DNA from: an uncultured Pseudomonadales bacterium
GTDB taxonomy: Bacteria; Patescibacteriota; Microgenomatia; UBA1400; MFAQ01
Reading direction: 5' to 3'
DNA length: 64,000 bases
Assembly: GCA_964429015.1 (NCBI GenBank)
Contig: CAYSAM010000003.1
Coordinates: forward strand, 6,378-70,377
In this document: positions 3,505 to 32,487 of the stretch, one piece after another
How the letters are laid out: the number at the start of each line of letters is the position of its first letter
Position numbering within the stretch: the first letter of the stretch is position 1
The notes under the pieces: model-generated
Database searches by the model: none
What the model saw: only the letters and a program-made list of their open reading frames with translations
What the model was told of the DNA's origin: nothing
Translations under genes and position numbers: made by a program

Positions 3505-4029
3505 ATGGCATATTCAGGCAACACCAACAATCGCGGTAACAATCAAAGACCAGTCTCAGATAATTTTGAGCAAGTTTTAGAAATTCGTCGCGTTAGCAAA
3601 AAAACCCAAGGCGGCACAAATGTTTCTTTTTCTGCCTTAGTGGTTACAGGTGACAAAAAGGGTAAAGTTGGTCTAGGTTTAGCCAAAGCCCCAAACGTTG
3701 CCGACGCTATCAAAAAGTCCATCCGTTTAGGTAATCGTGATTTGGTTCAGGTTCCTCTAAGTAACGGCACCATTCCTTACGAAACCAAAAGTAAGTATGG
3801 CGCCGCCAAGGTTCTCTTCCGCCCTGCTCCAAAAGGTACAGGTATCATTGCTGGTTCAGCCGTTCGTGCTGTAGTAGAAGCCGCAGGTATCACCGACATA
3901 GTTTGTAAAGTTCTCGGAACCAATAACAAAACTAGCAATGCTCGCGCTACTTTCAAAGCCCTCAAACAAATCGAAACACTCGCCAAAAAATACCAATTGC
4001 TCAAAGCCCTAAAAACAGCTAAGGCTTAA
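3505..4029 (+). CDS. rpsE: 30S ribosomal protein S5
   Basis: 174 aa ...VLEIRRVSKKTQGG...; L15 follows directly, so no rpmD (L30) is present. Confidence 0.93.
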   Translation: MAYSGNTNNRGNNQRPVSDNFEQVLEIRRVSKKTQGGTNVSFSALVVTGDKKGKVGLGLAKAPNVADAIKKSIRLGNRDLVQVPLSNGTIPYETKSKYGAAKVLFRPAPKGTGIIAGSAVRAVVEAAGITDIVCKVLGTNNKTSNARATFKALKQIETLAKKYQLLKALKTAKA

Positions 4030-4034
4030 ACAAC

Positions 4035-4484
4035 ATGAACACAATACTCACCAATCTTCAAAAAGTCACCAAAACAGGTAAAAAACGCCTAGGACGAGGA
4101 CGTGGTTCAGGTGTTGGTGGTCATACTGTTGGTCGTGGTCAAAAAGGTCAAAAGACTCGAGGAGTTATCCCCCTCTGGTTCGAAGGTGGACAGCTTCCTT
4201 TGGTCCGCAGAACTCCTTTTATCAAAGGTAAACACCGCTTCCAGGTAATTAACAACCAACCCACCACCGTCAACTTTGATCTTCTCAGTAAACACTTCGA
4301 GGATAAATCTGTGGTCGATAATCTCACTCTCGCCAAAGCCCTAAAGATCAGTGAAAAGGTCGCCAAAAACGGTTTTAAGGTCATTGCTACTGGCAAGCTC
4401 ACCAAGGCTCTAGAGGTCAAAGTAGCAGCTTCAGTAGGTGCCATCAAAGCCATCGAAGTTGCAGGCGGCTCCCACTCAATCTAA
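4035..4484 (+). CDS. rplO: 50S ribosomal protein L15
   Basis: 149 aa ...RLGRGRGSGVGGHTVGRGQKGQKTRG... Confidence 0.93.
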   Translation: MNTILTNLQKVTKTGKKRLGRGRGSGVGGHTVGRGQKGQKTRGVIPLWFEGGQLPLVRRTPFIKGKHRFQVINNQPTTVNFDLLSKHFEDKSVVDNLTLAKALKISEKVAKNGFKVIATGKLTKALEVKVAASVGAIKAIEVAGGSHSI

Positions 4485-4503
4485 GAATTCTTTATTAAGT
4501 CCC

Positions 4504-4536
4504 AAAAAAGTCGCCGAAATGGCGGCTTTTTTTGTT
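4504..4536 (+). terminator. rho-independent terminator after rplO
   Basis: AAAAAAGTCGCC-GAAAT-GGCGGC followed by TTTTTTTGTTTTT. This is unexpected, since secY normally continues the operon. Confidence 0.7.
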
Positions 4537-4545
4537 TTTCTGGTT

Positions 4546-4622
4546 GTCATTCCCGACTCGATCGGGAATCCATCCCCATTTCGTCATTGCGAGGCTCGAC
4601 TTTAGGTCGACCGTGGCAATCC
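4546..4622. repeat. GTCAT-hairpin composite repeat element (family 1)
   Basis: GTC-ATTCCCGA-CTCGA-TCGGGAAT-CC (8-bp stem) followed by CGTCATTGCGAGGCTCGACTTTAGGTCGACCGTGGCAATCC. Related copies lie at 12100, 13056(rc), 27408, 32313, 34517, 43257 and 53706. Confidence 0.75.
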
Positions 4623-4644
4623 ACCTACCATCCTGAACCTTGCC

Positions 4645-4675
4645 CAAACACCCTATATTATGGTACAATTACCAT
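4645..4675 (+). promoter_or_regulatory. putative sigma70-like promoter (TTGCCC-18-TACAAT with TG extension)
   Basis: ttgcccaaacaccctatattatggtacaat; lies upstream of the 4713 TTG ORF. Confidence 0.35.
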
Positions 4676-4712
4676 CAGAAATCTTAAAATCCAAGAAAAA
4701 AAGAGGTGTAAA

Positions 4713-5345
4713 TTGACAACACAAAGCGAAAGAAGGAAAAGAACTACCCAAGCACTGCTGTTGGCCGCCCGCCAACTTTACAACGAATTAGATTTTTTTC
4801 AAAAGTACTTTACTTCCACAGTGATTTTAAACGGCTACGTTTGCTGGATGAACGACAGAAAAACAGGTTACTACAAGGTTAATGTCAACAGCGGCATTGT
4901 CCTTGAAGTTGATACCATTGAAGATACGACGGGTAAATACGTAAGGACAGAAGACCTTGTTTCGGTTTCCATGGCAATGGCAAACTTCATCAATATTTCC
5001 GGAACTATGGCAGGTTACTCGAGGCCTCTGCCTCAAATCAGCCACCAAGTACTGGATGGCATTGGTTGTCAGGTAACTACTCGTGGCGCGAACGAGACAG
5101 ATCTAACGCTTTATGCTTCTCACGATGTCTATCTAGAACTTGCCAAGTTGCATGTATTACACGAGCAAATATATTGGCCCCACAAACTCACCCATTACGC
5201 TCTAAAAGATGGCCGAACTCTGGCAATCACCATCGAGGAAAAAGAAGTTAACTTCGCAGTTTTGAGATCTCAATCCGTTCCAGTGAAAACAGGTATTCTT
5301 GAAATGCGCAACGCACTCATGGAATTTGTTCTTTACTGCAGTTAG
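4713..5345 (+). CDS. hypothetical protein (island ORF A; TTG start after SD AAGAGGTG)
   Basis: The long ORF from 4587 begins inside the repeat element. SD plus an in-frame TTG at 4713 is more plausible. No recognisable domain. Confidence 0.45.
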   Translation: MTTQSERRKRTTQALLLAARQLYNELDFFQKYFTSTVILNGYVCWMNDRKTGYYKVNVNSGIVLEVDTIEDTTGKYVRTEDLVSVSMAMANFINISGTMAGYSRPLPQISHQVLDGIGCQVTTRGANETDLTLYASHDVYLELAKLHVLHEQIYWPHKLTHYALKDGRTLAITIEEKEVNFAVLRSQSVPVKTGILEMRNALMEFVLYCS

Positions 5346-5356
5346 TTAGATACCAG

Positions 5357-5382
5357 CCCGCCTCATTGAGGCGGGTTCTTTT
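5357..5382 (+). terminator. rho-independent terminator
   Basis: CCCGCCTC-ATT-GAGGCGGG followed by TTCTTTT. Confidence 0.8.
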
Positions 5383-5444
5383 ATACCTACCATCATCCTT
5401 ACCAAAACACCCTCACGCCCGCAGGATTTTTTTGTGCCCAAATC

Positions 5445-5473
5445 TTGAATATTATCCTATATAGTGCTAAAAT
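5445..5473 (+). promoter_or_regulatory. sigma70-like promoter TTGAAT-17-TAAAAT with internal palindrome CTATATAG (paralogue A)
   Basis: ttgaat attatcctatatagtgc taaaat; an almost identical copy lies 700 bp downstream. Confidence 0.6.
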
Positions 5474-5519
5474 ACCCCAGATTTATCCAATCCACACTTT
5501 AAGTTAAAGGAGCTATCAC

Positions 5520-6083
5520 ATGCCGTCTGAATTCAAGAAGTTTTCACCTTACTTACTTTTGCTATTTATCTTCAGCGCAATCCTCGGTCTTTTCCTTCGT
5601 GGCAATCAGCTTGCCACCAGTATCTGGTTAGGCGTAGCCGTGGTTACCTGTATCTGCCTTATCGGTATTGAGTTCGGCTCACTTCTATTAGTCAAAAAAG
5701 ACAAAAATCTCTGGTACACAGAAACTCTCATTGCCGACAACAACGCAATCTTTGTCTTTGGCGAAGATGAACGGCACGAAGCTAAAGAGATTGTGGAGAA
5801 CGTTCGACGTTTATACAATGCTGGAGTACTATATCCTGTCTTAAATATTTTTGGAGTCGAAACGAGGGCTAACTTTTGGGGAAAAGACTTTTACTGCCCA
5901 TTTTCTACGACAGTATCTACATACCTTTGCATAACCCCAGACGGTGTTTTCTGTCGAAGTAACAGCGGGCTCGAAGTCCTGGAAAAGTTTGAGGCAATAA
6001 GTTTTGGATTCTTACAAGAACTCCACCGTGAGTTAGCACTTCAGGTTGAAAAACTCCCAGACCTTTCGGAAGATGAGTGGTAA
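5520..6083 (+). CDS. hypothetical membrane protein (2 N-terminal TM helices plus cytoplasmic domain; island ORF B)
   Basis: SD AAGGAG 9 nt upstream; hydrophobic segments LLLLFIFSAILGLF and IWLGVAVVTCICLIGI. Confidence 0.6.
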   Translation: MPSEFKKFSPYLLLLFIFSAILGLFLRGNQLATSIWLGVAVVTCICLIGIEFGSLLLVKKDKNLWYTETLIADNNAIFVFGEDERHEAKEIVENVRRLYNAGVLYPVLNIFGVETRANFWGKDFYCPFSTTVSTYLCITPDGVFCRSNSGLEVLEKFEAISFGFLQELHRELALQVEKLPDLSEDEW

Positions 6084-6099
6084 TTTGTTTATTTTCGTT

Positions 6100-6133
6100 C
6101 CCCGTCGCCATCATGGCCACGGGGAATTTTTTT
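6100..6133 (+). terminator. rho-independent terminator
   Basis: CCCCGTCGCC-ATCAT-GGCCACGGGG followed by AATTTTTTT. Confidence 0.7.
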
Positions 6134-6144
6134 ATGCCCAAAGA

Positions 6145-6173
6145 ATGAAAATAATCCTATATAGTGCTAAAAT
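6145..6173 (+). promoter_or_regulatory. paralogous promoter copy B (ATGAAA-17-TAAAAT, same ATCCTATATAGTGCTAAAATACCCCA core)
   Basis: Bases 6151-6179 are identical to 5451-5479. Confidence 0.55.
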
Positions 6174-6204
6174 ACCCCAAAATTCCTTAATAAAAGGAGG
6201 CTAT

Positions 6205-6753
6205 ATGCCTTTATTTAAATTCGCTCTAGAAGACTGGTACCGACTTCCAATTGGTGGCAAGTACGAGTGCTACGTTCGCCCAGACCGCCCATATACTATT
6301 ATCATCGACAATGAGCACAACAAAGTCGCTCTCACATTGGAAATCTCTTCAAACCCAAACTGGTATGTAGAAGAATTTACGAAACAAGTTGAGGCTGACA
6401 TGGTTCTTCCGCTAAATCAACATAACCTCTATTTTCTAGAAAGAGAAGCCCTGCTTGCAGAAGAAAGGCTCAATATCCACCACGATCATTTTTATGAAGA
6501 TGTTGGTGAATTGGAAGAAAAGAGATATCTATACGCCGCAATATTCGAAGTCTTTCTGTTCGATCGTCCCCCAGGTTATCTCGGCCTTCGTAGCCAGCAA
6601 GAATACTTGTTGGTTTACAACTCGATACCTTATCTTAGTTTCGATCCAAACAGTCTGGAGTATCAAAAATCGCTAAACATATTCACTGCCTTTACAGGTG
6701 CAACTGTTTGCAGAGTTGTAGATGTTACAGACTCGATTATTTCAGGTATATAA
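6205..6753 (+). CDS. hypothetical protein (island ORF C)
   Basis: SD AAGGAGG plus ATG at 6205. The long 6046 start overlaps the upstream gene and terminator. Confidence 0.6.
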   Translation: MPLFKFALEDWYRLPIGGKYECYVRPDRPYTIIIDNEHNKVALTLEISSNPNWYVEEFTKQVEADMVLPLNQHNLYFLEREALLAEERLNIHHDHFYEDVGELEEKRYLYAAIFEVFLFDRPPGYLGLRSQQEYLLVYNSIPYLSFDPNSLEYQKSLNIFTAFTGATVCRVVDVTDSIISGI

Positions 6754-6785
6754 TCAGCCCAGCACACGAAAATAAAGGAGAAAAA

Positions 6786-7115
6786 ATGGACATTGATTTT
6801 TCAGGTTCGCTTGAAAGACTCTTAAAAATAACCCGTTTTTTACATTCGATCATTGAGAATTTAGCTTTGGAAAAGCAAGAATCACCAAGTCTATACTTTG
6901 AGGCTAACAAGCTATACATTAACCTCAATCATCGACAAGGCTGGATTGTTGTCGATCCTGAAAATAATCGAGCTTATCATGTTTCGCGGGCCAAGGATCC
7001 AGCTACAACTCAACATCCTTGCTCACCATATTTGGCTGAATATATTTACAAGAGCCTGCACGACACCCTCATTGATCTCAATCTGCTTGTAGACTACAAC
7101 AATTTTGAAGGATAG
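6786..7115 (+). CDS. hypothetical protein (island ORF D, 109 aa)
   Basis: SD AAGGAG followed by ATG at 6786. Confidence 0.55.
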   Translation: MDIDFSGSLERLLKITRFLHSIIENLALEKQESPSLYFEANKLYINLNHRQGWIVVDPENNRAYHVSRAKDPATTQHPCSPYLAEYIYKSLHDTLIDLNLLVDYNNFEG

Positions 7116-7124
7116 CAACCATCA

Positions 7125-7151
7125 CACCCTCACATTCCGAGGGTGTTTTTA
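7125..7151 (+). terminator. rho-independent terminator
   Basis: CACCCTC-ACATTCC-GAGGGTG followed by TTTTT. Confidence 0.8.
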
Positions 7152-7159
7152 TATTCAAC

Positions 7160-7188
7160 TTGTTATATATCCCATAATGACATAAAAT
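7160..7188 (+). promoter_or_regulatory. sigma70-like promoter TTGTTA-17-TAAAAT containing the ATATCCCATAA motif
   Basis: ttgtta tatatcccataatgaca taaaat. Confidence 0.5.
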
Positions 7189-7236
7189 ATCAAAGCGTGC
7201 GTTGTCACTTTAAAATACCAAACACAGGAAGGTAAA

Positions 7237-7884
7237 ATGCTAAACGATTCTTTACGTCTCATGCTTGTTGAATCCACAATAAACGTCTTTAGGGTAGCTT
7301 TAAGTTCACCGTACTTCCTAAAGTCAATTGTGGATATCCCACACATAAACATAGGAAGCAACCTTTGTTTTTATGCAGAGGAGATAGGTGTTTATTGCTG
7401 CATCGACCTTAGTTTAAACGATATATATGTCTCACCAGAGCTAGTTGCTTTGGATTATCAAAATTACCCACAGGCTACCATCCAAGAACTTATTGTTTTG
7501 TCTCAAACACTTGTTCGCTTTGCAAAAAAAACAAGCTTGTGGTCAAGAATTTGTTCTTTATCTTGTCATATCAAAATTACTCCGGGAGAACAAGAACTTC
7601 TGCCACAAAGTTGTTATTTCGATAATGAAATTCTATTTTGGTATAGCCCCAAAATTAACCAGTACCTTAGAGTCGATTTTGTTTCATATAGCTTATTCCT
7701 TATGGATGAGCCTTCAGATCAGAGGAGTGCTTGGAAAGTCCCCTCAGAACAACATTTGCAAGCAGTTATCGAAGAGATTGTAAGTCACTATATATCAATT
7801 CATAAAAAAACAACAATGATTGCTGAGTATATGAATCAATACTTACAAAACAAAGATCTTAGTCAAAAGTTTTCCCTAAGTTAA
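7237..7884 (+). CDS. hypothetical protein (island ORF E, 215 aa)
   Basis: SD AGGAAGG; ORF. Confidence 0.55.
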   Translation: MLNDSLRLMLVESTINVFRVALSSPYFLKSIVDIPHINIGSNLCFYAEEIGVYCCIDLSLNDIYVSPELVALDYQNYPQATIQELIVLSQTLVRFAKKTSLWSRICSLSCHIKITPGEQELLPQSCYFDNEILFWYSPKINQYLRVDFVSYSLFLMDEPSDQRSAWKVPSEQHLQAVIEEIVSHYISIHKKTTMIAEYMNQYLQNKDLSQKFSLS

Positions 7885-7913
7885 AACTACTACTTGTGCA
7901 AACGGAGCTGCAA

Positions 7914-8465
7914 ATGGTCTCAATGGTGCAAAAAATTTTATTAGATCTAGCCAAAGAATTGGCTTTAAAAAAGCAAAAAGAAAGTTTGATAACCTGGGAT
8001 ATCTCCCCACATCTATCCCTCGGTATAGATCTTGTTGATGAAAAATTTTTTTACATTACCAAGCCAGGGAAAACAAAAATTAAGGATGAAGTCACTCTGG
8101 ATGACATCCTCATCGTTGCCTCCGCCATAAAGTTGTATTTAAAAAATGGCGCAGACAAATACAACATGGAGTTGGATTTGTATTACCAGAGTGGCGTCCG
8201 ATACTACGCTAACCTCGTCATCTTCTACGTTGAAAGCTGTGATGGTCCCAAAACAGACCGTTTCGTTATTGTTGGCAAACATATTGCCTTCAAAAACAGA
8301 TCTGGCTTCAACGTCTACCAGCATGTCCCGGATGGACCTGGAGTTTGGTATCAAGCTGGAGGTAAGCAGCTCGATATTGACAAAATAAAAAAGGTTGAGC
8401 AGATAAACCGCAGACGAGATCGCAGAGCGTTCGATCTCCTTCGAGAAACTGTGAAAATGTTATAG
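7914..8465 (+). CDS. hypothetical protein (island ORF F)
   Basis: SD GGAG 6 nt before the ATG at 7914. Confidence 0.5.
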   Translation: MVSMVQKILLDLAKELALKKQKESLITWDISPHLSLGIDLVDEKFFYITKPGKTKIKDEVTLDDILIVASAIKLYLKNGADKYNMELDLYYQSGVRYYANLVIFYVESCDGPKTDRFVIVGKHIAFKNRSGFNVYQHVPDGPGVWYQAGGKQLDIDKIKKVEQINRRRDRRAFDLLRETVKML

Positions 8466-8476
8466 GACAATTAAAT

Positions 8477-8507
8477 CATCTCGGCCATTTGGTCGGGATT
8501 TTTTGTC
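8477..8507 (+). terminator. putative terminator (7-bp stem with G-U pairs followed by T-run)
   Basis: CTCGGCC-ATTT-GGTCGGG followed by ATTTTTTG. Confidence 0.5.
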
Positions 8508-8532
8508 CATATCCCATAAAAAGATATATAAT
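8503..8532 (+). promoter_or_regulatory. sigma70-like promoter TTGTCC-18-TATAAT containing the ATATCCCATAA motif
   Basis: ttgtcc atatcccataaaaagata tataat; paralogous to the 7160 promoter. Confidence 0.55.
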
Positions 8533-8566
8533 ATGCCAGACTAAATACTAAAGGAGAACTTTTAAA

Positions 8567-9229
8567 ATGCACAAGAATCTCTATGACTATCTCAGAAATG
8601 CTGTCTTGTCAAAGGAGTTTTTATATCTCCTGGATGAATGTGGTGGTAAGTATCAAAATGGTTTTTTAACTTGGATCAAATTCCTTTTTGATGATGACGA
8701 ACTGGATGTTGACAAAGAAAGTATCGTCTATGCCATCGATATTAATCTGGAAAAAATTTACCTTCTCAACCACGAAAATCAGGTGCCTGGTCAAGGTAAG
8801 CTGGTAACAAGTCTAGAGTTGGCTGACGAGCTTTATAAAAGCATCTCATCTCGAATCTCAATAGTTAACGCTCTAAAGGGCAAAACCCTACCTTCGGTTA
8901 ATCTTTTTCAGTTTGTTCTTTTCTGCTTCGAAAATTTTGGACCGAGAAGTCTATTGGAAAAAGCTGGAGCCATTTTTGATGGTGACTGGTTCATTTGGCA
9001 AGATGAAAATGAAGAGCTTTTTTACGCCGTCAATCCCATCGTTAGTTCTGTCATGGCGCTTGTCAGTAAGGACGATAATCCAGCGATGGGGCGTGAGGTG
9101 CTAGATGAATTAGAAATCTCAAATATTCTAGTGGACATTTTTGAAAAGCTGGAAGAAGTCCGTTATATTAAAATTTTTAATTTTTCACCCAGTCACTATC
9201 TCCCGGGTCAACTGTTTACTATAAACTAA
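8567..9229 (+). CDS. hypothetical protein (island ORF G; weak SUKH/SMI1-KNR4-like resemblance)
   Basis: SD AAAGGAGA. The segment ...AGAIFDGDWFIWQDENEELFYAV... resembles SMI1/KNR4 immunity-type folds, but this is a low-confidence call. Confidence 0.55.
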   Translation: MHKNLYDYLRNAVLSKEFLYLLDECGGKYQNGFLTWIKFLFDDDELDVDKESIVYAIDINLEKIYLLNHENQVPGQGKLVTSLELADELYKSISSRISIVNALKGKTLPSVNLFQFVLFCFENFGPRSLLEKAGAIFDGDWFIWQDENEELFYAVNPIVSSVMALVSKDDNPAMGREVLDELEISNILVDIFEKLEEVRYIKIFNFSPSHYLPGQLFTIN

Positions 9230-9238
9230 AGAGTCATC

Positions 9239-9622
9239 ATGGATGAAAACGACGAAAAGAATCCACTAGAGGACCTAATACACATTATTCAAATTTTAAT
9301 GGAAGAGCCAGACAAGCTAGAAAAACTCAAAAAAATGGGGGCCAAAATCACCAGAGATTTTTTTGTGTTTACCTGTTTAGGCGGGTGTGGTTTGGTTTAT
9401 GCCATAAACGGAATTTCTGGTGAAGTTTATGACCTCAATGATCTAGAAAGCACACCAGAAACCGGAAGAGTAATAACAGACTCAGAGGAGATTGCATGCA
9501 TTATCGAAAGCCTTCTTGAGTTTGTTGAAGATACCCCAGATTTGTATGTGGTTGAAGAGTTTTTTATGGAACGCCTAAACCCCAAAAAATACATCCCTGG
9601 AAGTTGCTTTTCACCTTGCTAG
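9239..9622 (+). CDS. hypothetical acidic protein (island ORF H, 127 aa)
   Basis: Closely follows ORF G; SD AAGAG. Confidence 0.5.
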   Translation: MDENDEKNPLEDLIHIIQILMEEPDKLEKLKKMGAKITRDFFVFTCLGGCGLVYAINGISGEVYDLNDLESTPETGRVITDSEEIACIIESLLEFVEDTPDLYVVEEFFMERLNPKKYIPGSCFSPC

Positions 9623-9635
9623 CTTTTGATCACAG

Positions 9636-9659
9636 ACCCGCTTCTTAGCGGGTTTTTTA
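9636..9659 (+). terminator. rho-independent terminator
   Basis: ACCCGCT-TCTT-AGCGGGT followed by TTTTT. Confidence 0.8.
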
Positions 9660-9703
9660 ACGGACTCTTTCAAAAATCTCAAAAACTGTTAATATAAAAA
9701 TAT

Positions 9704-10720
9704 ATGGCAAGTGAAAATGAAGAATATTCCACACGACGAACAGTAGCCCCTCATGCCCCATCAAGGCAACCAAGGCGTGATTTTAAGAGTAGTTATCAAG
9801 ATGACGTTTACAATCCCTATTCTAATGTAAACTTAGGTGAGATTTCAGAAGTAAACCGAAAACCCAAAAAAGGCAGAATCAGAAGAAATGAACTAACCCC
9901 AACTGAAATTAATAATCTTTCAGAAGCAGACAAAAAAGCTAGAGAAAAATACCTAGCTGGCAATCTTGAGGAAATAAAACAATTATCATATGTTGAAACT
10001 AAGGGGAATTTTGGTAAGGTTGGTGAGGCACACACTGATGGTAAGCCTCCAGTTACTGAAGAGCGGGACGAAAAAATTACTGGTTTTAGCGTTGTTCAAT
10101 TAGAAAAAGAAGGAGATGTTTTAAGAGGTGATGAACAACGCATAGAAGGTATTGATAGTGGAAAATTGGGAACTGGAAAAAATCCAGATCAAGCAGATAT
10201 TGTCTACACCGAAAACGATCATCTTTTACCCATTAGTGACCGCGTGCAAAGTTTTGGTGATAGTCCGTTGCCTTTAGAAGATCAACATGCCGATAACGAT
10301 TATGAATTTGCAAAAAACGAAGACAGATTGATTGAGCCTGTTGATGCTACTCGAATAGAAGGTGATATTAACGTTGACTTTAACTTGGAATCAGTTTCAG
10401 ATAAAGTGGTACGTGAATTCTTAATTAAAAAAGGGTTAAGCTTTGTTGAAAATGTTTGGGAAAATTGCCGCTTTATTAATATATATTCAAAAAAAGATAG
10501 TTTTGATTTATACATAAATTTAAATGCTTATGGCAAAGGTTTTGTAGCTATGAAATTGGTTGACTTCTTTAATATGTGCAATTTGCCAGATTTTAATAAT
10601 GGTAATTCTCATTTGAAATCACCTGCGACCTTTGATAAAAAAGAAATATTGTCTACAATTAACAGAATTAAAGTTAACAATCGAGCAAATGGTGCCATAA
10701 AAAAATCAAGGCGCCATTGA
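9704..10720 (+). CDS. hypothetical protein with disordered, charged N-terminal half and C-terminal globular domain (island ORF I)
   Basis: 338-aa ORF; no recognisable domain. Confidence 0.5.
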   Translation: MASENEEYSTRRTVAPHAPSRQPRRDFKSSYQDDVYNPYSNVNLGEISEVNRKPKKGRIRRNELTPTEINNLSEADKKAREKYLAGNLEEIKQLSYVETKGNFGKVGEAHTDGKPPVTEERDEKITGFSVVQLEKEGDVLRGDEQRIEGIDSGKLGTGKNPDQADIVYTENDHLLPISDRVQSFGDSPLPLEDQHADNDYEFAKNEDRLIEPVDATRIEGDINVDFNLESVSDKVVREFLIKKGLSFVENVWENCRFINIYSKKDSFDLYINLNAYGKGFVAMKLVDFFNMCNLPDFNNGNSHLKSPATFDKKEILSTINRIKVNNRANGAIKKSRRH

Positions 10721-10767
10721 CAAGATAAAAGTTAATTAGACGATCGTATATGGTTGTTGTATAAGCG

Positions 10768-10796
10768 TTACACTTTTTATCTCCTTGATATAGAAT
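10768..10796 (+). promoter_or_regulatory. putative secY promoter TTACAC-17-TAGAAT; secY is probably leaderless or short-leadered
   Basis: The -10 ends 12 nt before the secY ATG, and there is no SD. Confidence 0.4.
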
Positions 10797-10808
10797 AGTA
10801 CTCACTCT

Positions 10809-12092
10809 ATGGAAAATATTTTTGCTCCACTGCGAGCCTTGTTTAAAATCAAAGATCTTCGTTCTCGTCTTATCTTTACTGCCGTCATCATTGCCATCTT
10901 TCGCTTTGTGGCTCATATTCCTACCCCAGGTATTAATGTCGCTGCACTACAACAACTTTTTGGTGGCAATGCCTTTCTCTCGCTACTAGACGTTTTTTCA
11001 GGTGGTACTCTTACCAATTTTTCCGTCATGGCTCTAGGGCTAAACCCCTACATCAACGCTTCTATAATTATTCAAATGCTTGGCATGGTCGTTCCCAAAC
11101 TCGAAGAACTTCAAAAAGAGGGGGACTATGGTCGCCAAAAATTAAACCAATACACCAGGCTACTTACCTTACCACTAAGCTTTTTGCAAGGTATTGCTCT
11201 CATAATGCTTTTAGCTAAGCAAGGTCTAACCACTACCGCCGACCCTCTCAAACTCGCCGCTATTATTTTTACTCTCTCCGCCGGCACCTCTTTTCTTATT
11301 TGGCTTGGTGAACAATTAAATGACTACGGTTTGGGAAATGGTATTAGTATGATTATTTTTGTTGGTATTGTTAGTCGTTTGCCAGTTAGTGCTGCTCAAG
11401 TTTTTTCCACTATCGACCCTTCCCAATACTTTACCTACCTAATTTTTCTTTTCTTTGCTGTCGTTGCCATTTATGCCATCATTCGTACAGGTGAGGCTGT
11501 CCGCGAGGTGCCAATTCAGTCCGCGCGCCGAGGTGCCAATACTTTTACCACCTCAGTTTCCAACCACCTACCTCTCAAATTAAATCAGGCAGGTGTCATC
11601 CCAATCATCTTTGCTGTTTCGTTTATGTTAATTCCCAATCTCTTAAGTCGTGTTTTAGCGGGTGTCAATCAGCCAAGTTTAGCCAGTTTTGCAAGTAATC
11701 TTAGTATCGCCCTAGCTCCAAATACTTTTTTGTATAACAGTATTTACTTTTGTTTAGTTGTTGCTTTCTGTTACTTTTATACTGCCGTTGTTTTTAATCC
11801 CGAAAAAATTGCCAAAGATCTTCGCACTTCAGGTTCTTTTGTTCCGGGCATAAGACCAGGTCAAAATACTGTTGAATATCTAAACTTTGTTCTCAATCGT
11901 ATTACCTTGGTTGGTGCCAGCTTCTTAGGATTAGTTGCCATTTTCCCCTCTATTATTTCTGGAATTACAGGTATAAGTTCTATCGCCATTGGAGGTACCG
12001 GCATTCTTATCGTTGTTTCCGTGGTTCTCGAAATTCTCAAAGCCGTCAACTCCCAGCTCTACATGTACAACTACGACAAATTTTTAGATTAA
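10809..12092 (+). CDS. secY: preprotein translocase subunit SecY
   Basis: 427 aa, 10 TM, ...[27 protein letters not shown]... Confidence 0.95.
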
Positions 12093-12157
12093 AATCATTG
12101 TCATTGCGAGGCACGTCTTTATGACAGCCGCAAAAATCTATATAAATTGAATACAAA

Positions 12158-12541
12158 ATGAAAACCATTTTAGTCGACGCTGCTGGAACACTTGTCGTCG
12201 ATGGTCAGGGAATATATCAGCCTCTTTATGACCTACTGGAAGAGTACCTAAACAAAAAGATTATTTTGTCCAATGCCAACGACGAACAATTGGTTGACTA
12301 TGGCATCGTTAACATGCCATATGAAGTCTTTACCTTAAAACACAATCCCAACAAAGACAATCCTGAGTATTTTAAAACAATGTTGAACCATTTTGGCTTA
12401 TCCGTTTCGGATGTCATTTATTTTGAGCATAGCCCCGAGGCTGTCGAAAGTGCCACTTCTCTAGGTATACTTTCTCATCACTACGACTCGGATAAAAAAG
12501 ATATTGAAAGTCTAAAAGTATTTCTAGATAAAAACCTTTAG
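12158..12541 (+). CDS. small HAD-superfamily-like hydrolase (degenerate motif I)
   Basis: MKTILVDAAGTLVVDG...; 127 aa. Confidence 0.4.
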   Translation: MKTILVDAAGTLVVDGQGIYQPLYDLLEEYLNKKIILSNANDEQLVDYGIVNMPYEVFTLKHNPNKDNPEYFKTMLNHFGLSVSDVIYFEHSPEAVESATSLGILSHHYDSDKKDIESLKVFLDKNL

Positions 12542-12544
12542 TTT

Positions 12545-12964
12545 TTAATCCCTCTCGGCTTCGCCGCTTCTCCCTTTGACAAGGGAGAGCAAAACACTTT
12601 TAACTTTTCCAAAATCTTTCAATACAGTCTCGTTTGTAAATCTGATAGTTTCAATTCCAATTTGTTTCAAAAATTCATCACGCTCCTTGTCGTAACCTAC
12701 TCTATCTTTGTGATACTCTCCATCAATTTCAATAGCCAAGTTTAATTCAGAACAATAAAAATCCAAAATAAATCTTCCAATCGGTTTCTGTCTGGTAAAT
12801 TTATATCCTGTCTGTTTTTTAGATAGTATCTTCTCCCAAACTAACACTTCTGCTTTTGTTGGTTTCTTTCTGTTAATTCTTGCTGCCCAGGTTAACTTTG
12901 GTAAATACTTTATTTGCCCATGTGTTTTGCTAATAACTTCAAAATCAATAGCTTTTTTCGTCAC
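12545..12964 (-). CDS. DUF559 / endonuclease-like (Vsr-fold) domain protein
   Basis: ...KKPTKAEVLVWEKILSKKQTGYKFTRQKPIGRFILDFYCSELNLAIEIDGEYH... Confidence 0.75.
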   Translation of the reverse strand: MTKKAIDFEVISKTHGQIKYLPKLTWAARINRKKPTKAEVLVWEKILSKKQTGYKFTRQKPIGRFILDFYCSELNLAIEIDGEYHKDRVGYDKERDEFLKQIGIETIRFTNETVLKDFGKVKSVLLSLVKGRSGEAERD

Positions 12965-12973
12965 AAATAATTG

Positions 12974-13122
12974 TAACGCCCTGCCCTGTCAAGGGAAGGG
13001 TTGGGGAAGGGTTTAAAAAGTGAGGGGGATTAAAAACATTAAGGCTTTATTCTGGATTCCGGATCAAGTCCGGAATGACAACTAACGCCCTGCCCTGTCA
13101 AGGGAAGGGTTGGGGAAGGGTT
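12974..13122. repeat. 40-bp perfect direct repeat (x2) flanking a family-1 GTCAT hairpin
   Basis: TAACGCCCTGCCCTGTCAAGGGAAGGGTTGGGGAAGGGTT occurs at 12974-13013 and 13083-13122. A related CCCTTTGACAAGGGAGAG lies at 12567-12590. Confidence 0.85.
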
Positions 13123-13140
13123 TTGGTATAAAATAAATCC

Positions 13141-13704
13141 ATGAACCTAATCATTCTCGGTGCCCCCGGTTCCGGAAAAGGCACCCAAGCCGAAAAAATC
13201 GCCAAAGAATTTAATCTTGCCCACATTTCAGGCGGAGAGTCACTGCGCAAAGAAATAGCCAGTGGGTCAAGAAAAGGCGAACTAATTGCCCACATTATGG
13301 AAAAGGGGGACTTAGTCCCGTTTGAAACAATCTCTTCCGTTATTGAACCAGAAATTCTAGAGAATAAAGACAATTTTATTTTGGATGGTAGTCCCAGAGA
13401 TCTGGTCCAGGCCGAATATCTAAATGCTTTTTTTGCCGAAAACAAAATCAACATCGACTTTGTAATATACCTCCATGTTCCAGACGAAAAACTCATCGAT
13501 AGACTTTTGCTTCGTGCCAAAACCGAAAACCGTGTCGATGATAATTTAGAATCTATTCAAGAGAGATTCAAAGTATTCCACCAAAATACCGAACCTGTCA
13601 TCGCCTTTTACCAAAAAAATTCTCACTTTCTCAAAATAGATGGTGATCGCAGTATCGAAGACATAGCCAAAGAACTCAGTAATATAATAGGACAAAGTAC
13701 ATGA
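13141..13704 (+). CDS. adk: adenylate kinase (short form, no zinc lid)
   Basis: MNLIILGAPGSGKGTQAEKIAKEF... Confidence 0.93.
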   Translation: MNLIILGAPGSGKGTQAEKIAKEFNLAHISGGESLRKEIASGSRKGELIAHIMEKGDLVPFETISSVIEPEILENKDNFILDGSPRDLVQAEYLNAFFAENKINIDFVIYLHVPDEKLIDRLLLRAKTENRVDDNLESIQERFKVFHQNTEPVIAFYQKNSHFLKIDGDRSIEDIAKELSNIIGQST

Positions 13705-14438
13705 GTTCAAAAACCCAAATCATGATCGAAGGCGGCAAACGCCTAGGTCACATCAAATTCCAATTAGCCGAAGCGGTCAAAGCAGGAGTCACCCCACTAG
13801 AGGTCGATGCTCTTGCCGATAAGCTCATCAAGGCAGGAGGAGATAAAGCTAACTTCAAAATGGTCGATGGCTATCGCTTTGCTACTTGTATTAATGTCAA
13901 CGCTGGAATTGTTCATGGTATTCCTACCAACAAACCCTTTCAAGAGGGTGATGTTGTTAAGGTCGATGTTGGTTTATTCCACAACGGTTTCCACTTAGAT
14001 ACTTCCAATACTATCTACATTCCACCCCAAAACGCCAAAGTAAATAATTTTTTAGAAGTCAGTCGTAAGGCCTTAGAGCTGGCCATTTTTACCGCTACCG
14101 CTGGCAACAGTGTTTACGATCTCGGTGTGGCCATGCAAACTACTGTAGAGGCTGGTGGTTATAGCGTCATTCGAGATCTTACTGGCCATGGCATCGGTCG
14201 TCAGCTCCACATGAATCCTTTTATTCCCTGTTATGCCGAACCAAAAACCAAGCGAGATATTTTAAGTATCGATCAGACTATTGCTGTAGAGATTATGTCA
14301 GCTATGGGAGACTACCACCTAGTAGAAGAGTCCGATGGTTGGACTCTATCCACCCAAGATGGCTCCATTACTGCTATGTACGAGGAAACCATCTGTATTA
14401 CTGACGGCCAGCCCCTCATTCTCACCGCCATAAACTAG
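13701..14438 (+). CDS. map: methionine aminopeptidase type I
   Basis: ...GHGIGRQLHMNPFIP...; ATGA overlap with adk. Confidence 0.92.
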   Translation: MSSKTQIMIEGGKRLGHIKFQLAEAVKAGVTPLEVDALADKLIKAGGDKANFKMVDGYRFATCINVNAGIVHGIPTNKPFQEGDVVKVDVGLFHNGFHLDTSNTIYIPPQNAKVNNFLEVSRKALELAIFTATAGNSVYDLGVAMQTTVEAGGYSVIRDLTGHGIGRQLHMNPFIPCYAEPKTKRDILSIDQTIAVEIMSAMGDYHLVEESDGWTLSTQDGSITAMYEETICITDGQPLILTAIN

Positions 14439-14512
14439 CTCTTTCTTGGTAGTTTGGTGGTCTATAATACCCACATCACCGCAGTTTAAATTTGTATAAA
14501 TTAGGAGTCAAT

Positions 14513-14953
14513 ATGAAAACCTTGTTGTTAGTCCATGATCAAGATTTCCTTTCCACTGCCAGCGCGCTCTGTTACATGCTCACAGCTTCTGGCTTTAGGG
14601 TTGTTTTAAGCTCAGATCTTTTTGCTGGAAGCCTCAAATCAGAAGCCTACAACGATCTCGACAAGATTTTTACCAATACCGCGGCGTTTTTAGTTTTACC
14701 CAGCCCAAATCTCTTTAAAAATGATTTTCTCCTCGGAATTGTTCACGATGCGGTTGGCGAACGCAAGGCTATTCTCCTTTCCTTATCATCTGTCACAAAT
14801 CTGCCTCCGTGGTATACAAATCCCATTGTTATCGACAATCCAGGAGATACCTCACAAGGGCTAAATCAGCTGATAACAAGGTTAAATTTGTTTGTTATGA
14901 ATCAGCCGCCTATTATTACTCCAGACATCATAAGTCTAAGAAGAATCAACTAA
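14513..14953 (+). CDS. hypothetical protein, possibly TIR-like/flavodoxin-like fold
   Basis: SD AGGAG followed by ATG at 14513; alternating beta-alpha pattern (KTLLLVHDQDF...RVVLSSD...AAFLVLPSP...). Confidence 0.45.
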   Translation: MKTLLLVHDQDFLSTASALCYMLTASGFRVVLSSDLFAGSLKSEAYNDLDKIFTNTAAFLVLPSPNLFKNDFLLGIVHDAVGERKAILLSLSSVTNLPPWYTNPIVIDNPGDTSQGLNQLITRLNLFVMNQPPIITPDIISLRRIN

Positions 14954-14964
14954 ACCGTTCAGTT

Positions 14965-14987
14965 GCCCTCCCTTGAGGGCTTTTTTG
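14965..14987 (+). terminator. rho-independent terminator
   Basis: GCCCTC-CCTT-GAGGGC followed by TTTTTT. Confidence 0.85.
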
Positions 14988-15078
14988 TATTCATTTTACC
15001 AGTGATATATGTGTCCCAAACTAGCCACTAGCCAAACCTAGGATTGTTTGCTACAATAGCCGTTGCACACAAAATATT

Positions 15079-15297
15079 ATGGCTAAAAACCAAATGACTG
15101 AGTTAAACGGAGTCGTTTCCGAGTGTCTGCCCAACACCCAATTTAGGGTAACACTAGAAGACGGCAGGGAAATCTTAGCTCATCTTGCCGGACGTATGAG
15201 GCTTCACCGCATTCGCGTCATGCCTGGGGACAAAGTTAAGCTCGAAATGAGCCAATACGACCTCGACAAAGGTAGGATAATCTACAGATCAAACTAA
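15079..15297 (+). CDS. infA: translation initiation factor IF-1
   Basis: 72 aa ...[30 protein letters not shown]... Confidence 0.95.
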
Positions 15298-15344
15298 TTT
15301 CGTTTATCTCTTAAAAAAATTATTTATCACTAAACAAAAATCTA

Positions 15345-15458
15345 ATGCGAGTTCAATCGTCTGTCAGACCTCGATGTAAAAATTGTAAAATTATTAAACG
15401 CCATGGTAAGGTGTTGGTTATTTGCACCAACGCACGTCATAAGCAACGCCAAGGCTAA
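15345..15458 (+). CDS. rpmJ: 50S ribosomal protein L36 (37 aa; too short for the ORF track)
   Basis: [37 protein letters not shown]. Confidence 0.9.
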
Positions 15459-15497
15459 AGTTAAATTTAAAATTTAAACTCAAAAAAATAAACAAAT

Positions 15498-15899
15498 ATG
15501 CCTAGAATTTCCGGAATCGATATCCCAAATGAAAAAAGAATAGACGTTGCTCTTACCTATATCTATGGTATCGGTGAAAAAGTTGCTCACGACATTCTCA
15601 AAACAGCCAAAGTTGATCCTAGTATCCGTACCAAAAATCTAACTGCCGACGAGCTCAGACTTATCCAAACCACCATCGAAACTCTCCCCACCGAAGGTGA
15701 GCTCAGAAAAATCGTTCGCGACAACATCGAAACTCTTAAGCGTATTCAGGCCTACCGCGGTACCAGACACTCCATGGGTCTACCTGTAAGAGGTCAAAGA
15801 ACCAAAACCAATGCTCGCACTCGCAAGGGTAAGAGAAAAACCATTGGTGCCGTTAGTAAAGAAGCCGAAGCCGCCAAGGCAGCAGCTACCAAGAAGTAA
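15498..15899 (+). CDS. rpsM: 30S ribosomal protein S13
   Basis: MPRISGIDIPNEKRIDVALTYIYGIG... Confidence 0.95.
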   Translation: MPRISGIDIPNEKRIDVALTYIYGIGEKVAHDILKTAKVDPSIRTKNLTADELRLIQTTIETLPTEGELRKIVRDNIETLKRIQAYRGTRHSMGLPVRGQRTKTNARTRKGKRKTIGAVSKEAEAAKAAATKK

Positions 15900-19344: not shown

Positions 19345-22300
19345 GTGACCAGTTTTTTTACCTATCTTCACAAGCTTAACAAAGTAAAAGTTGGAATAAT
19401 TTTTTTATCTCTTTGTTTTTTGGTGTCAGTCGCCGTTTTTATTTTGCCTCAACTTCGTCAAACTGCGCGCATCAAACTTGGATCAGTAGACGGGCTAACT
19501 ATAACCGCTGATAAGCAGGACTCTCTCGGTATCTTCACCAATACCCAATTTACCGTCAAAACAGATACTGATCTGAGCTCTTCCGACATCAAAAAGAACC
19601 TCACCATTTTTCCTGCTACAGAATTCGATATTCAGCCGATTTCTGCACGTCAATTCACCTTAACTCCAAAACAACACCTCCTAGATAACAGTATCTACAG
19701 AATCGAAGTCAAAACCAATCAAAAAACTTTTTCGTGGGCATTTCAAACCAAAAATGATTTTCGTGTAGTCAATTCTCTTCCAGCCGACAAAACAGCCTAC
19801 GTACCCACAAACACAGGTATAGAACTAATTTTTAGCCACGACAACTGGGAAGATCCAAAAAGTTTCTTTTCTATTCATCCCAAGACGGAAGTAAGTTTCG
19901 AGCGCCACGGCCGGACCGCCTCATTTTTGCCTAAGTCCTTAAATCCCGGAACTCTTTATACCGTTACTCTCAAAAAAGGTCTAAAGCTAAACGGTACTGT
20001 CGATATCCTAAAAGACGATTTCACTTTTCAATTCGAAACAAAACCTTCCACTCCAATACAATCAAAAGTAAGCTTTTCCAAACTAACTTACGAATTTTCT
20101 GACACAGTAACACCAGCTTTCGATGTCTATGTTCCCAGTGAATCACTTTCGGCTATTTCTGCTGATATTTACAAATATCCCGGAGACTCAAGTTTTCTAA
20201 ATCATCTAAATGAAAAAATCTCTACCCCCTCGTGGGCAACTTACTCGGTTAGTAGCGATGTTTTACCAACTAACAATCTTACCAAAGTGGTTTCCCTAAA
20301 TCTAAATATTCAAAAGCAAAAATATAGTAACTTTTTCTCACTTCCCCAAACCCTACCTCTTGGACAATACCTTATCGAGGTATCTGCTGGTGGTCAAAAA
20401 TCCCAAGCACTATTTCAGGTTACCAATGTTTCCGCTTACTTTACCCAAAGTGGCACCAAAACTCTAGTTTGGGTCAACAGTTTAGCAAACGCTCCACTTT
20501 CTGGTGCTACGGTAACTTACAACAATAACAATCAGACCACCGATCAAAACGGCATCTCTTACTTCGAAACTGAACCCTCAGATATACAACTAGGTTTTCA
20601 AAATAAAACAACTATAGTTGCCGTGAAGCAGTCACTTGGAGCTCTTTATTTTCCTTTAAAGAGCGATTATTCTATTTTTTACCAAAAGCAATCACGCCAA
20701 TCAGATAAGTACTGGAGTTATATTTATCTAGACAGGCCCACCTATCTTCCAACAGATACTGTAAAGCTTTGGGGTTTACTCAAAAACAGAGATCTGCCAG
20801 ATAAAAAAACAGAATTTACCTTAGAGGTTACTCGCTCCGATTATCATTCTTGGGACTATCAGCCCATTGCTGTCTATTCCAAAAAAGTTACAACAACAGA
20901 TTTAGGAACCTATCTCGAAGAAATCAACCTCAATCAGTTTTCACCAGGCTGGTATACACTCAGTTTTAAGGTTGGTAATGATATCGTTATTAATTCAGGT
21001 TTTAGTGTTGAAACCTATGTCAAACCAGCCTACAAAATTTCTGTTCAACCTTCGGTCAAAGCTGCTTTTTCTGGAGATCAAATTAATCTTTTAGGTCAGG
21101 CCCAATTTTTTGAGGGGACACCTGTTGTTGGTTTACCGCTAAAAAGCTACAATTCTGACAGTAGTCTAGCTTCACTTACTCCAATCACTGACAACCAGGG
21201 TAAATTTTCAGTTTCTGTTCCTGTAAATAATGGTTCTGCAAATTATTCTCCTAATAATGTGAGTTTTACTTTCTCTCCAAAAAATCCTGAAGAGGGGCAA
21301 ATTTCTGGAAGCGCCAGCCTTGCTGTCTTTTCCTCTTCTCTCTATTTTCCTTATCCACGCATAGACAATAAAAACAATCAATCATCAGTTACTATCAACC
21401 TTCGTCAAGTAGATCTTCAAAAATACTCTCCCACAGCCGACCTCGCCGAGGTTTTTAATCCAGCACCAAATCAAAATGTTCACGCTGTTATTTATCAAAT
21501 CGATTGGCTCAAAAATCAGGTTGGTACGTACTACGATTTTATAAACAAGGTAACCTCTCCAACTTACGAATACTCACAATCTCAAAAGCAAATAGGGGAG
21601 TTTGACTTGGTTACAAATAGTTCTGGTCAAGCCACTTATAGTGTCAATCTCCCCGAAAATACAACATATAAAATTTCATTTTCTTCCAAGGATTCACTGG
21701 GCAGGACGGTTACTCAAGAAGCCATTTTGTACGGTAACAATTATGGTAATTCAGACGACAATTTTCTTTATCTAAAAACCGATAAAGAACAAGAGAAACC
21801 AAATACGTATAATATCGGCGAGCAAGTTAACCTTCATATTGAACAGGGTGGTAAAACTATAGCCGAAAACGAGTCAGACAAGTTTCTTTTTATTGTTTCT
21901 CAGCGCGGAATCAGATCATATTATCTCTCAGATAATGGCCTATTCAGCTTTAAATTTCCCGAAACCTTTATTCCAAACTTTTTTATCCAAGCAGTAAGAT
22001 TCAACGGTCAAACCTACCAAGCTACCGAAAATCTAAGCCTTTACTTCAACCAGGACTCCAAAAAATTAAACATTAAACTTTCCTCAGATAAACCTCTGTA
22101 CGAACCTGCTGATACTGCCAAAATTAACGTTACCACTTCAGACAATAGTGGCAATCCTATCCCTGCTGAAGTAGTCCTCAACGTGGTCGACGAGTCATAT
22201 TATGCACTCTTCACAGATTATCTCAATCCACTTTCAGAGATATACAAATCTGTCCAAACAGATATCATTACTACTTACGCCACACATCAATATCCAAGCA

Positions 22301-27407: not shown

Positions 27408-27503
27408 GTCATGCCGGTCTTGATGAGTTTGTCCCGAGTACCCCCTCGGGAGCATCCAGTCCACGTCATTGCGATGCACGACTTTAGGTCGGCCGCGGCA
27501 ATC
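27408..27503. repeat. GTCAT-hairpin composite repeat element (family 1)
   Basis: GTCATGCCGGTCTTGATGAG...TCCCGAG-TACCCC-CTCGGGAG...CGTCATTGCGATGCACGACTTTAGGTCGGCCGCGGCAATCT. Confidence 0.75.
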
Positions 27504-27859: not shown

Positions 27860-27884
27860 AAATATTGATACTCATCCTATATTG

Positions 27885-32350: not shown

Positions 32351-32487
32351 CTTCTCAGTAGGTTTCTGCCTTTAGCCCCTGACCTAGATCCGTGGTAAAT
32401 GTCGAAATTAGTTTTTGTCGAAGACAAAATAACTTTCGACCAATCTATACAAACTACACTAAGTGAAAATAGTACTTAGTCAAAAAT

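Follow-up and report, generated by a model that had tools for sequence, protein, structure and literature searches.

A repeated, predicted terminator-promoter module in a strain-variable gene island of a Collierbacteria ribosomal superoperon

We analyzed a 64,000-nucleotide stretch of DNA from an uncultured bacterium (here called the window; contig CAYSAM010000003.1 of GenBank assembly GCA_964429015.1, positions 6,378 to 70,377 of the forward strand), with a focus on a short repeat that precedes two small open reading frames (ORFs), B and C. Both ORFs lie in an island within a ribosomal superoperon. Pfam identified the upstream genes as those for L14, L24, L5, S8, L6, L18, S5 (3505-4029), and L15 (4035-4484) and the downstream genes as those for SecY (10809-12092), Adk, Map, S13, S11, S4, RpoA, L17, L13, and S9. 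The island and its ORFs are as follows.

4485-10808, plus strand: island, 6.3 kb between rplO (4035-4484) and secY (10809-12092)
4713-5345, plus strand: ORF A
5506-6083, plus strand: ORF B (5520-6083; 187 amino acids [aa], hydrophobic N terminus) with its Shine-Dalgarno site AAAGGAG (5506-5512)
6193-6753, plus strand: ORF C (6205-6753; 182 aa) with its Shine-Dalgarno site AAAGGAGG (6193-6200)
6786-7115, plus strand: ORF D
7237-7884, plus strand: ORF E
7896-8465, plus strand: ORF F
8567-9229, plus strand: ORF G
9239-9622, plus strand: ORF H
9704-10720, plus strand: ORF I

Among GTDB species representatives, the relatives of SecY belonged to Candidatus Collierbacteria (Microgenomates, within the candidate phyla radiation [CPR]), with up to 91% identity, and judged by its genes the window is part of a Collierbacteria chromosome. 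The S5 gene is directly followed by the L15 gene (4029-4035), with no L30 gene between them. A missing L30 is a known CPR trait, so this arrangement fits the assignment. A cyanobacterial origin, prompted by GTCATTGCGAG-type repeats, was rejected given the Collierbacteria relatives of SecY and a gene order (map, rpsD) that fits CPR. A prophage or early phage region, suggested by the dense plus-strand ORFs, was also rejected: the ribosomal spc/alpha operon flanks the island on both sides, PHROG gave 0 matches, and no relatives of C were found in IMG/VR viral contigs. A 16-base motif had 13 viral matches, which is the chance level.

None of ORFs A to I had a match in Pfam, PHROG, PADLOC, or NCBIfam. 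The only detectable similarity among them was between G (220 aa) and H (127 aa), which are adjacent paralogues (8567-9622; C-terminal half of G versus H, BLASTP E = 3e-8). The G/H family was seen in several islands (contigs used for comparison carry L numbers; here L001 to L004, L063, L064, and L081), and its profile found nothing in PDB or Pfam. No similarity was detectable between B and C, which agrees with an earlier reading made from the sequence alone (the sequence-only reading) that had called them unrelated, and we rejected the idea that they are diverged paralogues. In a search of 5.8 billion proteins, B had only two homologues, one of them 62% identical and located in the rplO-secY island of L062, and C had eight; all those with a readable contig were located in rplO-secY islands. 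Structure models of C (predicted local distance difference test [pLDDT] score of 82) and H (pLDDT of 84.5; predicted template modeling score of 0.80) gave no significant fold match, for H none in PDB. A SUKH-type, other immunity, defense, or anti-CRISPR identity for the island ORFs is unsupported, though not disproved, by the negative Pfam, PADLOC, NCBIfam, and profile searches. Rfam families matched nothing in positions 4400-15600, leaving structured RNA or riboswitch leaders unsupported.

In front of B and C, a repeat search found a direct repeat of 59 nt in two copies with 86% identity, whose starts are exactly 700 bp apart.

5426-5484, plus strand: copy 1, with a T-run, the shared flank TGCCCAAA (5435-5442), -35 TTGAAT (5445-5450), CCTATA (5456-5461), palindrome CTATATAG (5457-5464), TG (5465-5466), -10 TAAAAT (5468-5473), predicted start at about 5479-5481, and identical core (5454-5479)
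6126-6184, plus strand: copy 2, with a T-run, TGCCCAAA (6135-6142), -35 ATGAAA (6145-6150), CCTATA (6156-6161), the palindrome (6157-6164), TG (6165-6166), -10 TAAAAT (6168-6173), and predicted start at about 6179-6181

The order of elements is the same in both copies: T-run, TGCCCAAA, a weak -35, a 17-bp spacer containing CCTATATAG, TGC, the TAAAAT -10, and a leader with a Shine-Dalgarno site. In a promoter consensus scan, TTGAAT-17-TAAAAT and ATGAAA-17-TAAAAT each had 9 of 12 matches, and TGC abuts TAAAAT in both copies, which places TG at -15/-14 as in extended -10 promoters. The identical core is 26 nt long (5454-5479 = 6154-6179, ATCCTATATAGTGCTAAAATACCCCA) and is limited on the left by T at 5453 versus A at 6153. 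Allowing up to 3 mismatches, the 26-mer had 2 matches in the window versus 0 in 100 shuffles, and the 8-bp palindrome CTATATAG occurs in the window only in these two copies. Aligned without gaps at the 700-bp offset, the sequences that flank the 59 nt show only the background identity of 24 to 33%. A metagenome contig that is 99% identical (L067) carries both copies at the same spacing, and the repeat is therefore not an assembly artifact of the window. The sequence-only reading had described this pair, its 700-bp spacing, and the -35, 17-bp spacer, and TAAAAT elements of each copy, all of which held; the identical stretch, given there as 29 nt, is shortened to 26 nt by the T/A mismatch. The spacing of 700 has no evident significance, being the length of the B cassette, and a repeated promoter with a palindrome is, taken alone, ordinary.

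Hairpins that resemble intrinsic terminators recur along the island.

4504-4532, plus strand: predicted terminator 3' of rplO (hairpin fold)
5355-5377, plus strand: terminator-like hairpin at a unit boundary
5393-5433, plus strand: probable hairpin remnant of copy 1, with T-run 5427-5433; aligns with L001 8606-8645
6098-6133, plus strand: predicted intrinsic terminator of B, with 14-bp arms (6098-6111 and 6113-6126) and then T7 (6127-6133)
7124-7146, plus strand: predicted terminator before the E promoter (hairpin fold)
8478-8499, plus strand: predicted terminator before the G promoter (hairpin fold)
9634-9655, plus strand: terminator-like hairpin at a unit boundary

The six hairpins other than the copy 1 remnant split the island into units A, B, C-D, E-F, G-H, and I. 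The hairpin at 6098-6126 (inverted repeat I8) with its T7 folds at -21 kcal/mol (z = -5.3), has the G+C-rich stem and T-run of an intrinsic terminator, and is kept 3' of the B homologue in L062. The region before copy 1 is unfolded (-2.5 kcal/mol, z = 0) and lacks that signature. An intact hairpin and T-run before copy 2 and a decayed one before copy 1 are what the sequence-only reading had proposed, and its view of each copy as a junction of a terminator and a sigma-70-type promoter agrees with our predictions. In L001 (8606-8645), the hairpin CCCTGCAGCCACCACAGCCGCAGGG, the T-run, and ATGCCCAAAAC are intact and lie 3' of a different ORF, X. By this alignment, the copy 1 hairpin appears to be the remnant of a lost cassette's terminator, orthologous to the intact one in L001. 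The stems of L001 (CCCTGC...GCAGGG) and of the B terminator in the window (CCCCGT...ACGGGG) differ by two compensatory pair changes, which points to one terminator family in which the hairpin is maintained. An alignment of seven junctions (A4) likewise shows a hairpin, T6-7, and then (A/G)T(G/A)CC, with TTTTTT.T.CC invariant.

The promoter halves of the junctions also form a family, both within the window and across genomes. Promoter-like sites of the island lie at 4640, 5445, 6145, 7160, and 8503.

4640-4669, plus strand: sister promoter ahead of A, TTGCCC-18-TACAAT with AAACACCCTATATTATGG
7124-7188, plus strand: looser sister promoter ahead of E, with its terminator, TTGTTA-17-TAAAAT with CCCATA
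8478-8532, plus strand: looser sister promoter ahead of G, with its terminator, TTGTCC-18-TATAAT with CCCATA
L062, B homologue: promoter core CCTATATTATGGTATAAT
L062, C homologue: promoter core CCTATAAGGTGGTATAAT
L063 and L064, C homologue: promoter core CCTATAAAGTAGTATAAT
L065, C homologue: promoter core CCTATATTGCAGTATAAT
L066, C homologue: promoter core CCTATATAGCAGTATAAT

Upstream of the B and C homologues, CCTATA lies exactly 6 bp 5' of a TAnAAT -10 in all cases. An alignment of nine promoters of A, B, C, and X ORFs from six genomes (A7) has A.CCTATA......TA.AAT as its invariant part and an unconserved -35 region; six of the nine were located by protein homology, independently of the motif. 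Two promoters in relatives nearly match the core of the A promoter (4646-4669): that of the L062 B homologue and, in L001, that of ORF X, which is unrelated. We searched for the strict motif, CCTATA-N6-TAnAAT, in 643 kb of Collierbacteria DNA, of which islands make up 14% of the bases. All 15 matches (0.66 expected from shuffled sequence) were inside rplO-secY islands on the gene strand, with 0 in the other 86%, and they lie ahead of at least 7 ORF families that are mutually unrelated at a BLAST E value of 1e-3. A CCYATA spacer was present in 13 of 26 island contexts with a promoter, Shine-Dalgarno site, and ORF versus 1 of 20 outside (P = 0.001 [by Fisher's test]). Other good extended -10 promoters of Collierbacteria lack CCTATA, and with the strict motif absent outside the islands of this sample, we rejected the generic-promoter explanation. 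The sequence-only reading had named a genome-wide generic consensus with no tie to the cassettes as the outcome that would speak against it; in the sampled DNA, no such genome-wide consensus was seen.

Beyond this sample, a motif-first scan of Joint Genome Institute (JGI) metagenomes gave seven contigs, three of them from Collierbacteria with the motif just downstream of rplO. The unrelated JGI matches were about as many as expected by chance, and one that we examined (L088/L089) came from a Gram-negative organism. The exact 20-mer had no further copies in GTDB species genomes or JGI metagenomes, collections that do not include the source genome. Homologous modules recur in the islands of other Collierbacteria, which fits the spread of a promoter-bearing module. 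Outside the island, the window has a CCTATA-type spacer at just one promoter-like site, 54286-54315 (plus strand; TTGACA-18-TAGAAT). This site includes CCTATAGG, a perfect palindrome, and the leader after it (ctcactttgaac...aaaggag) is similar to the island leaders of relatives.

The interval that carries these modules varies strongly between strains. The rplO-secY gap measured 0.57 to 5.0 kb in 23 Collierbacteria loci carrying both flanking genes (from the set L001 to L031), 6.1 kb in L081, and 6.3 kb in the window; in two outgroup Microgenomates it was 44 to 63 bp. Across 30 loci, the gap ORFs fell into about 20 families in mosaic combinations. L081 and the window are 98.6% identical in SecY, 99.4% in S5, and 97.8% in Adk, and their islands overlap only at window positions 8495-9620 (G-H) and from 10764 onward (the secY promoter and gene). 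L081 is without A to F and I and has eight other ORFs instead. The left breakpoint of the G-H block (8495) is in the 3' arm of the terminator, just before the T-run preceding the G promoter, and the secY block begins at the -35 of the secY promoter (10764). These alignments define a hypervariable island with mosaic, strain-level content. Its proteins diverge far faster than those of neighboring genes: L062 and the window are 94% identical in L15, 62% in B, and 44% in C, L064 and the window are 88% identical in L15 and 68% in C, and C identity ranges from 44 to 70% between genomes whose L15 is 82 to 94% identical. The incongruence between L15 and B or C points to recombination.

Comparison with the relatives of B and C also bears on the origin of the exact identity between the two cores. 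Homology of the window to the C loci of L063, L064, and L066 starts at 6154-6156, and 6154 is the first base of the identical core; copy 2 is therefore best taken as the native C promoter. In L062, the core of the B orthologue (AAACACCCTATATTATGGTATAAT) differs from the one shared by B and C in the window (CCTATATAGTGCTAAAAT), and the B leader in the window retains TATCCAAT, a remnant of the L062-B promoter type. L062 carries both B and C in the same order, with promoter cores that differ from each other. B and C were therefore not recently added by one duplication, and the 26-nt identity is better read as a recent exchange between preexisting copies of the module. From these alignments, gene conversion or crossover between the neighboring copies is the most likely source of the identity. 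The sequence-only reading had proposed that the cassettes were added by duplicating a promoter-bearing module. The existence and spread of a module family fit that proposal, but a single recent duplication behind B and C is contradicted by L062.

The same data speak to a simple, recent tandem duplication of a segment of about 700 bp, in which one ORF was replaced or diverged beyond recognition while the noncoding module was conserved. Such an event would yield direct repeats at a short distance and ORFs alike in length, as B and C are (187 and 182 aa), and the fast evolution of the island proteins could have erased their similarity. We consider it highly improbable, given that B and C are dissimilar and differ in architecture (with a hydrophobic N terminus in B), that the two families stand separately in L062 in the same order with different promoters, and that identity is at background right outside the 59 nt.

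A further observation concerns L067 (ENA ERZ23795167, NODE_1019258; 790 nt, coverage of 1.26), whose positions 1-790 align to window positions 5418-6210. At its end, the contig runs from the left half of copy 2 through the core into the B leader (GATTTATCCAATCC...) in place of the C leader, a chimeric junction that reads ATGCCCAAAGAATGAAAATAAT...ACCCCAGATTTATCC. Its copy 1 has TAACAT where the window has TAAAAT. The junction could stem from a tandem B-B duplication or from a 700-bp circle excised between the repeats, and it could equally be an assembly error. Either of the first two products would be expected if the repeat were the attachment or crossover sequence of cassette capture (integron-like or Campbell-type), with B inserted as a circle carrying one copy and leaving flanking direct repeats. 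This explanation would also cover the T-run and RTRCCCAA that flank B in two diverged genomes and the strain-level breakpoints at modules. It is nonetheless quite improbable in our estimation: neither the island nor its vicinity yielded an integrase or recombinase, imperfect inverted repeats of the attC kind are absent, each cassette has its own promoter, unlike integron cassettes, and at 1.26x coverage the L067 junction is possibly an assembly error.

The palindrome in the spacer had been put forward as a candidate operator for a shared repressor. This did not hold up. Only 4 of the 15 motif sites have CTATATAG (the two window copies, L031, and L066), and the remaining 11 are asymmetric, so the dyad symmetry of an operator for a dimeric repressor is confined to those four family members. 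The orthologous promoters instead read CCTATATTAT, CCTATAAAGT, CCTATAAGGT, or CCTATATTGC. A regulator gene was not found either; no helix-turn-helix or other DNA-binding domain was detected in A to I or in J, an ORF downstream of secY, although the orphan proteins could hide one. These alignments show conservation of CCTATA at -24 to -19 rather than of the dyad. Strong promoters across bacteria have spacers organized as AT, GC, AT, and G-rich (TG) regions, and the spacer alone shifted promoter strength up to 600-fold (PMC12641261). The layout here, ATTAT / CC / TATATA / GTG, matches this four-region organization (PMC12641261), and a core-promoter role is therefore the economical reading of CCTATA.

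A shared regulator could still act through the hexamer itself. Here, CCTATA at -24 to -19 (with or without the TATAG half) would be the binding site of a dedicated factor (a repressor, an activator, or an alternative sigma factor), and the cassettes would form a regulon. Both the hexamer and its placement 6 bp from the -10 stay the same across 15 island promoters, in which the -35 is unconserved and sometimes absent, the motif is island specific in the sampled DNA, and partly palindromic variants exist (CCTATAGG at window position 54286 and CCTA-TC-TAGG in L024). We regard this reading as rather doubtful, since 11 of 15 sites are without CTATATAG, no DNA-binding protein was identified in or beside the island, the same 20-mer looks like a promoter in the unrelated Gram-negative contig L088, and the layout fits the general pattern of strong spacers.

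On balance, the two copies are probably homologous terminator-promoter junction modules that punctuate a hypervariable island of orphan ORFs in the Collierbacteria ribosomal superoperon, with local exchange having produced their identity. Each module would consist of an intrinsic terminator ending the upstream unit, a sigma-70-type promoter, a C-rich discriminator, and a short leader that bears a strong Shine-Dalgarno site. The promoter part would combine a weak -35, a 17-bp spacer with the invariant CCTATA 6 bp 5' of the -10, a TG extended -10, and TAnAAT. Transcription of the previous unit would be halted at the module and restarted some 7 nt past the -10, at about 5480 and 6180, so that the leaders would measure about 40 nt (B) and about 25 nt (C) and contain the Shine-Dalgarno sites AAAGGAG(G). 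The modules would in this way insulate neighboring cassettes and provide each ORF or ORF pair with its own constitutive-looking start, and cassettes would turn over quickly between strains with breakpoints at the modules. In the window, gene conversion or unequal crossover across the 700 bp that separate the copies may have replaced the B-promoter core with the native C-promoter core along a tract of about 26 to 59 nt.

The anatomy of the modules, their family membership, their association with the island, and the mosaicism of the latter follow directly from the sequence comparisons. Several points weigh against the fuller account. Promoter activity, start sites, and termination are predicted from consensus, and the direction of the conversion is deduced from a single B orthologue (L062). 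The clustering of the 8 mismatches outside the 26-nt run is marginal (P = 0.057) and compatible with uniform divergence after a duplication. The outside-island sample was small, with some 20 promoter contexts of which most lie close to this operon, and it covered the source genome through the window only. Finally, the invariance of CCTATA at a fixed spacing exceeds what a sigma-70 spacer usually needs, making a dedicated factor possible.

The island resembles several known systems in part. Phage morons are autonomous promoter-ORF-terminator units located between conserved prophage genes. Units A, B, C-D, E-F, and G-H are similarly self-contained, with a Shine-Dalgarno site and an ORF bounded by promoter- and terminator-like sites, and they sit within one operon, flanked by two conserved genes, and differ from one close relative to another. 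Unlike morons, they lie outside a prophage (PHROG gave 0 matches and IMG/VR no relatives), in a ribosomal superoperon, and share a homologous promoter family. In chromosomal integration hotspots, accessory genes cluster in a small number of intervals with core genes on either side, much as the fixed rplO-secY interval gathers different accessory genes in each strain; this interval differs in being inside a normally contiguous ribosomal operon, in having no mobile-element genes, and in being organized by a repeated terminator-promoter module. The Correia elements of Neisseria are intergenic repeats carrying promoter and terminator functions. They share with the module the supply of both signals by a short noncoding repeat at many intergenic sites, but neither the terminal inverted repeats nor the target-site duplication of Correia or miniature inverted-repeat transposable elements (MITEs) was found here, and the copies are confined to one locus rather than dispersed.

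To our knowledge, promoters in general show neither such an invariant hexamer nor such restriction to one locus. Extended -10 sigma-70 promoters with a structured spacer (PMC12641261) are alike in the -35-like hexamer, 17-bp spacer, TGn, TAnAAT, and succession of AT tract, CC, AT tract, and G-rich run; CCTATA is, by comparison with them (PMC12641261), fixed in position, invariant across deep divergence, and found at one locus only. The rAID-1 orphan-immunity arrays of Bacteroidales consist of codirectional, small, fast-evolving genes with repetitive intergenic sequences and strain-level turnover (bioRxiv 10.1101/471110). Like these arrays and integrons, the island has codirectional small genes, a repeated intergenic module (A4 and A7), and strain turnover. 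The XerD-like recombinase and immunity-gene homologues of rAID-1 arrays were not found here, and C and H had no immunity-family or fold match. As opposed to integrons, the island contains no IntI recombinase, its junction inverted repeats are terminator hairpins only, with no attC, and its cassettes carry their own promoters. The GC content of the island shows no skew against its surroundings.

Little has been described of the promoters and gene regulation of CPR bacteria, which are uncultured. The modules offer a testable CPR promoter class, CCTATA-N6-TAnAAT with an extended -10, that is tied to one locus. We consider a recombinase-free, strain-variable cassette island with one promoter class in a CPR ribosomal superoperon to be moderately novel. 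A ribosomal protein block that is usually treated as contiguous contains a strain-variable hotspot of orphan genes in Collierbacteria, and such a fast-evolving island is a place to seek host interaction or defense genes. It is also an interval at which metagenome assembly and binning can break, of which the low-coverage L067 is one possible example. More speculatively, the rplO-secY interval might be a dedicated, recombinase-free locus for cassette acquisition. The module would then serve both as an expression signal (possibly for a lineage-specific factor and regulon) and as a homology substrate for the swapping, duplication, or excision of cassettes after DNA uptake, the L067 junction would be a trace of this process, and the orphan proteins would be arms-race effectors of an episymbiotic lifestyle. 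We think this extension unlikely.

At the downstream edge of the island, secY has a promoter-like site of its own.

10767-10796, plus strand: secY promoter-like site, GTTACA-18-TAGAAT, with 12 nt from the end of the -10 to the ATG

The region 10767-10811 is without a Shine-Dalgarno site; the promoter sequence is identical in L081, and TAGAAT is at an equal distance from the ATG in L001. The short distance between the -10 and the ATG, together with the missing Shine-Dalgarno site, suggests a nearly leaderless secY mRNA. The terminator 3' of rplO would uncouple the ribosomal genes before it from the island and secY, with secY using its own promoter at 10767-10796.

Two more gaps in the same operon are variable, secY-adk (12133-13140) and map to rpsM (14439-15497). 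The former contains ORF J (12158-12541; weakly HAD-like), a minus-strand ORF resembling DUF559 endonucleases (12545-12964), and perfect 41-nt direct repeats (12974-13014 and 13083-13123) with a hairpin repeat between them. The latter contains ORF K (14492-14953). In relatives, these gaps hold EamA, GIY-YIG, cupin, or IS200-like genes. Short hairpin-forming repeats (GTCATTCCCGAC...GGGAATCC and CGTCATTGCGAGG...GGCAATCC) with the look of repetitive extragenic palindromic elements or MITEs occur at the island edges and in other intergenic regions (window positions 4546-4621, 12099-12138, 27454-27503, 32304-32353, and 34507-34532) and are common to other Collierbacteria (L001 9877-9960, L081 8461-8835, and L085 near 4740).

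Elsewhere in the window, an alpha-2-macroglobulin-like protein of 1,727 aa (19345-24528, plus strand) carries a HINT/PT-HINT (intein-like) domain at about residues 990 to 1123, where it separates the bait-region domain from the A2M domain. A 729-bp intergenic region contains a single tRNA-Pro(GGG) gene (27884-27955, minus strand). Three tandem 23-nt units (CCCCCRTGCCTGCCCTTG...) at 44639-44712 are noncoding. Coding repeats were found at 53159-53515 (three units of 159 to 162 bp with CxxC zinc-ribbon-like motifs) and at 54006-54110 (an acidic repeat with a 21-nt period).

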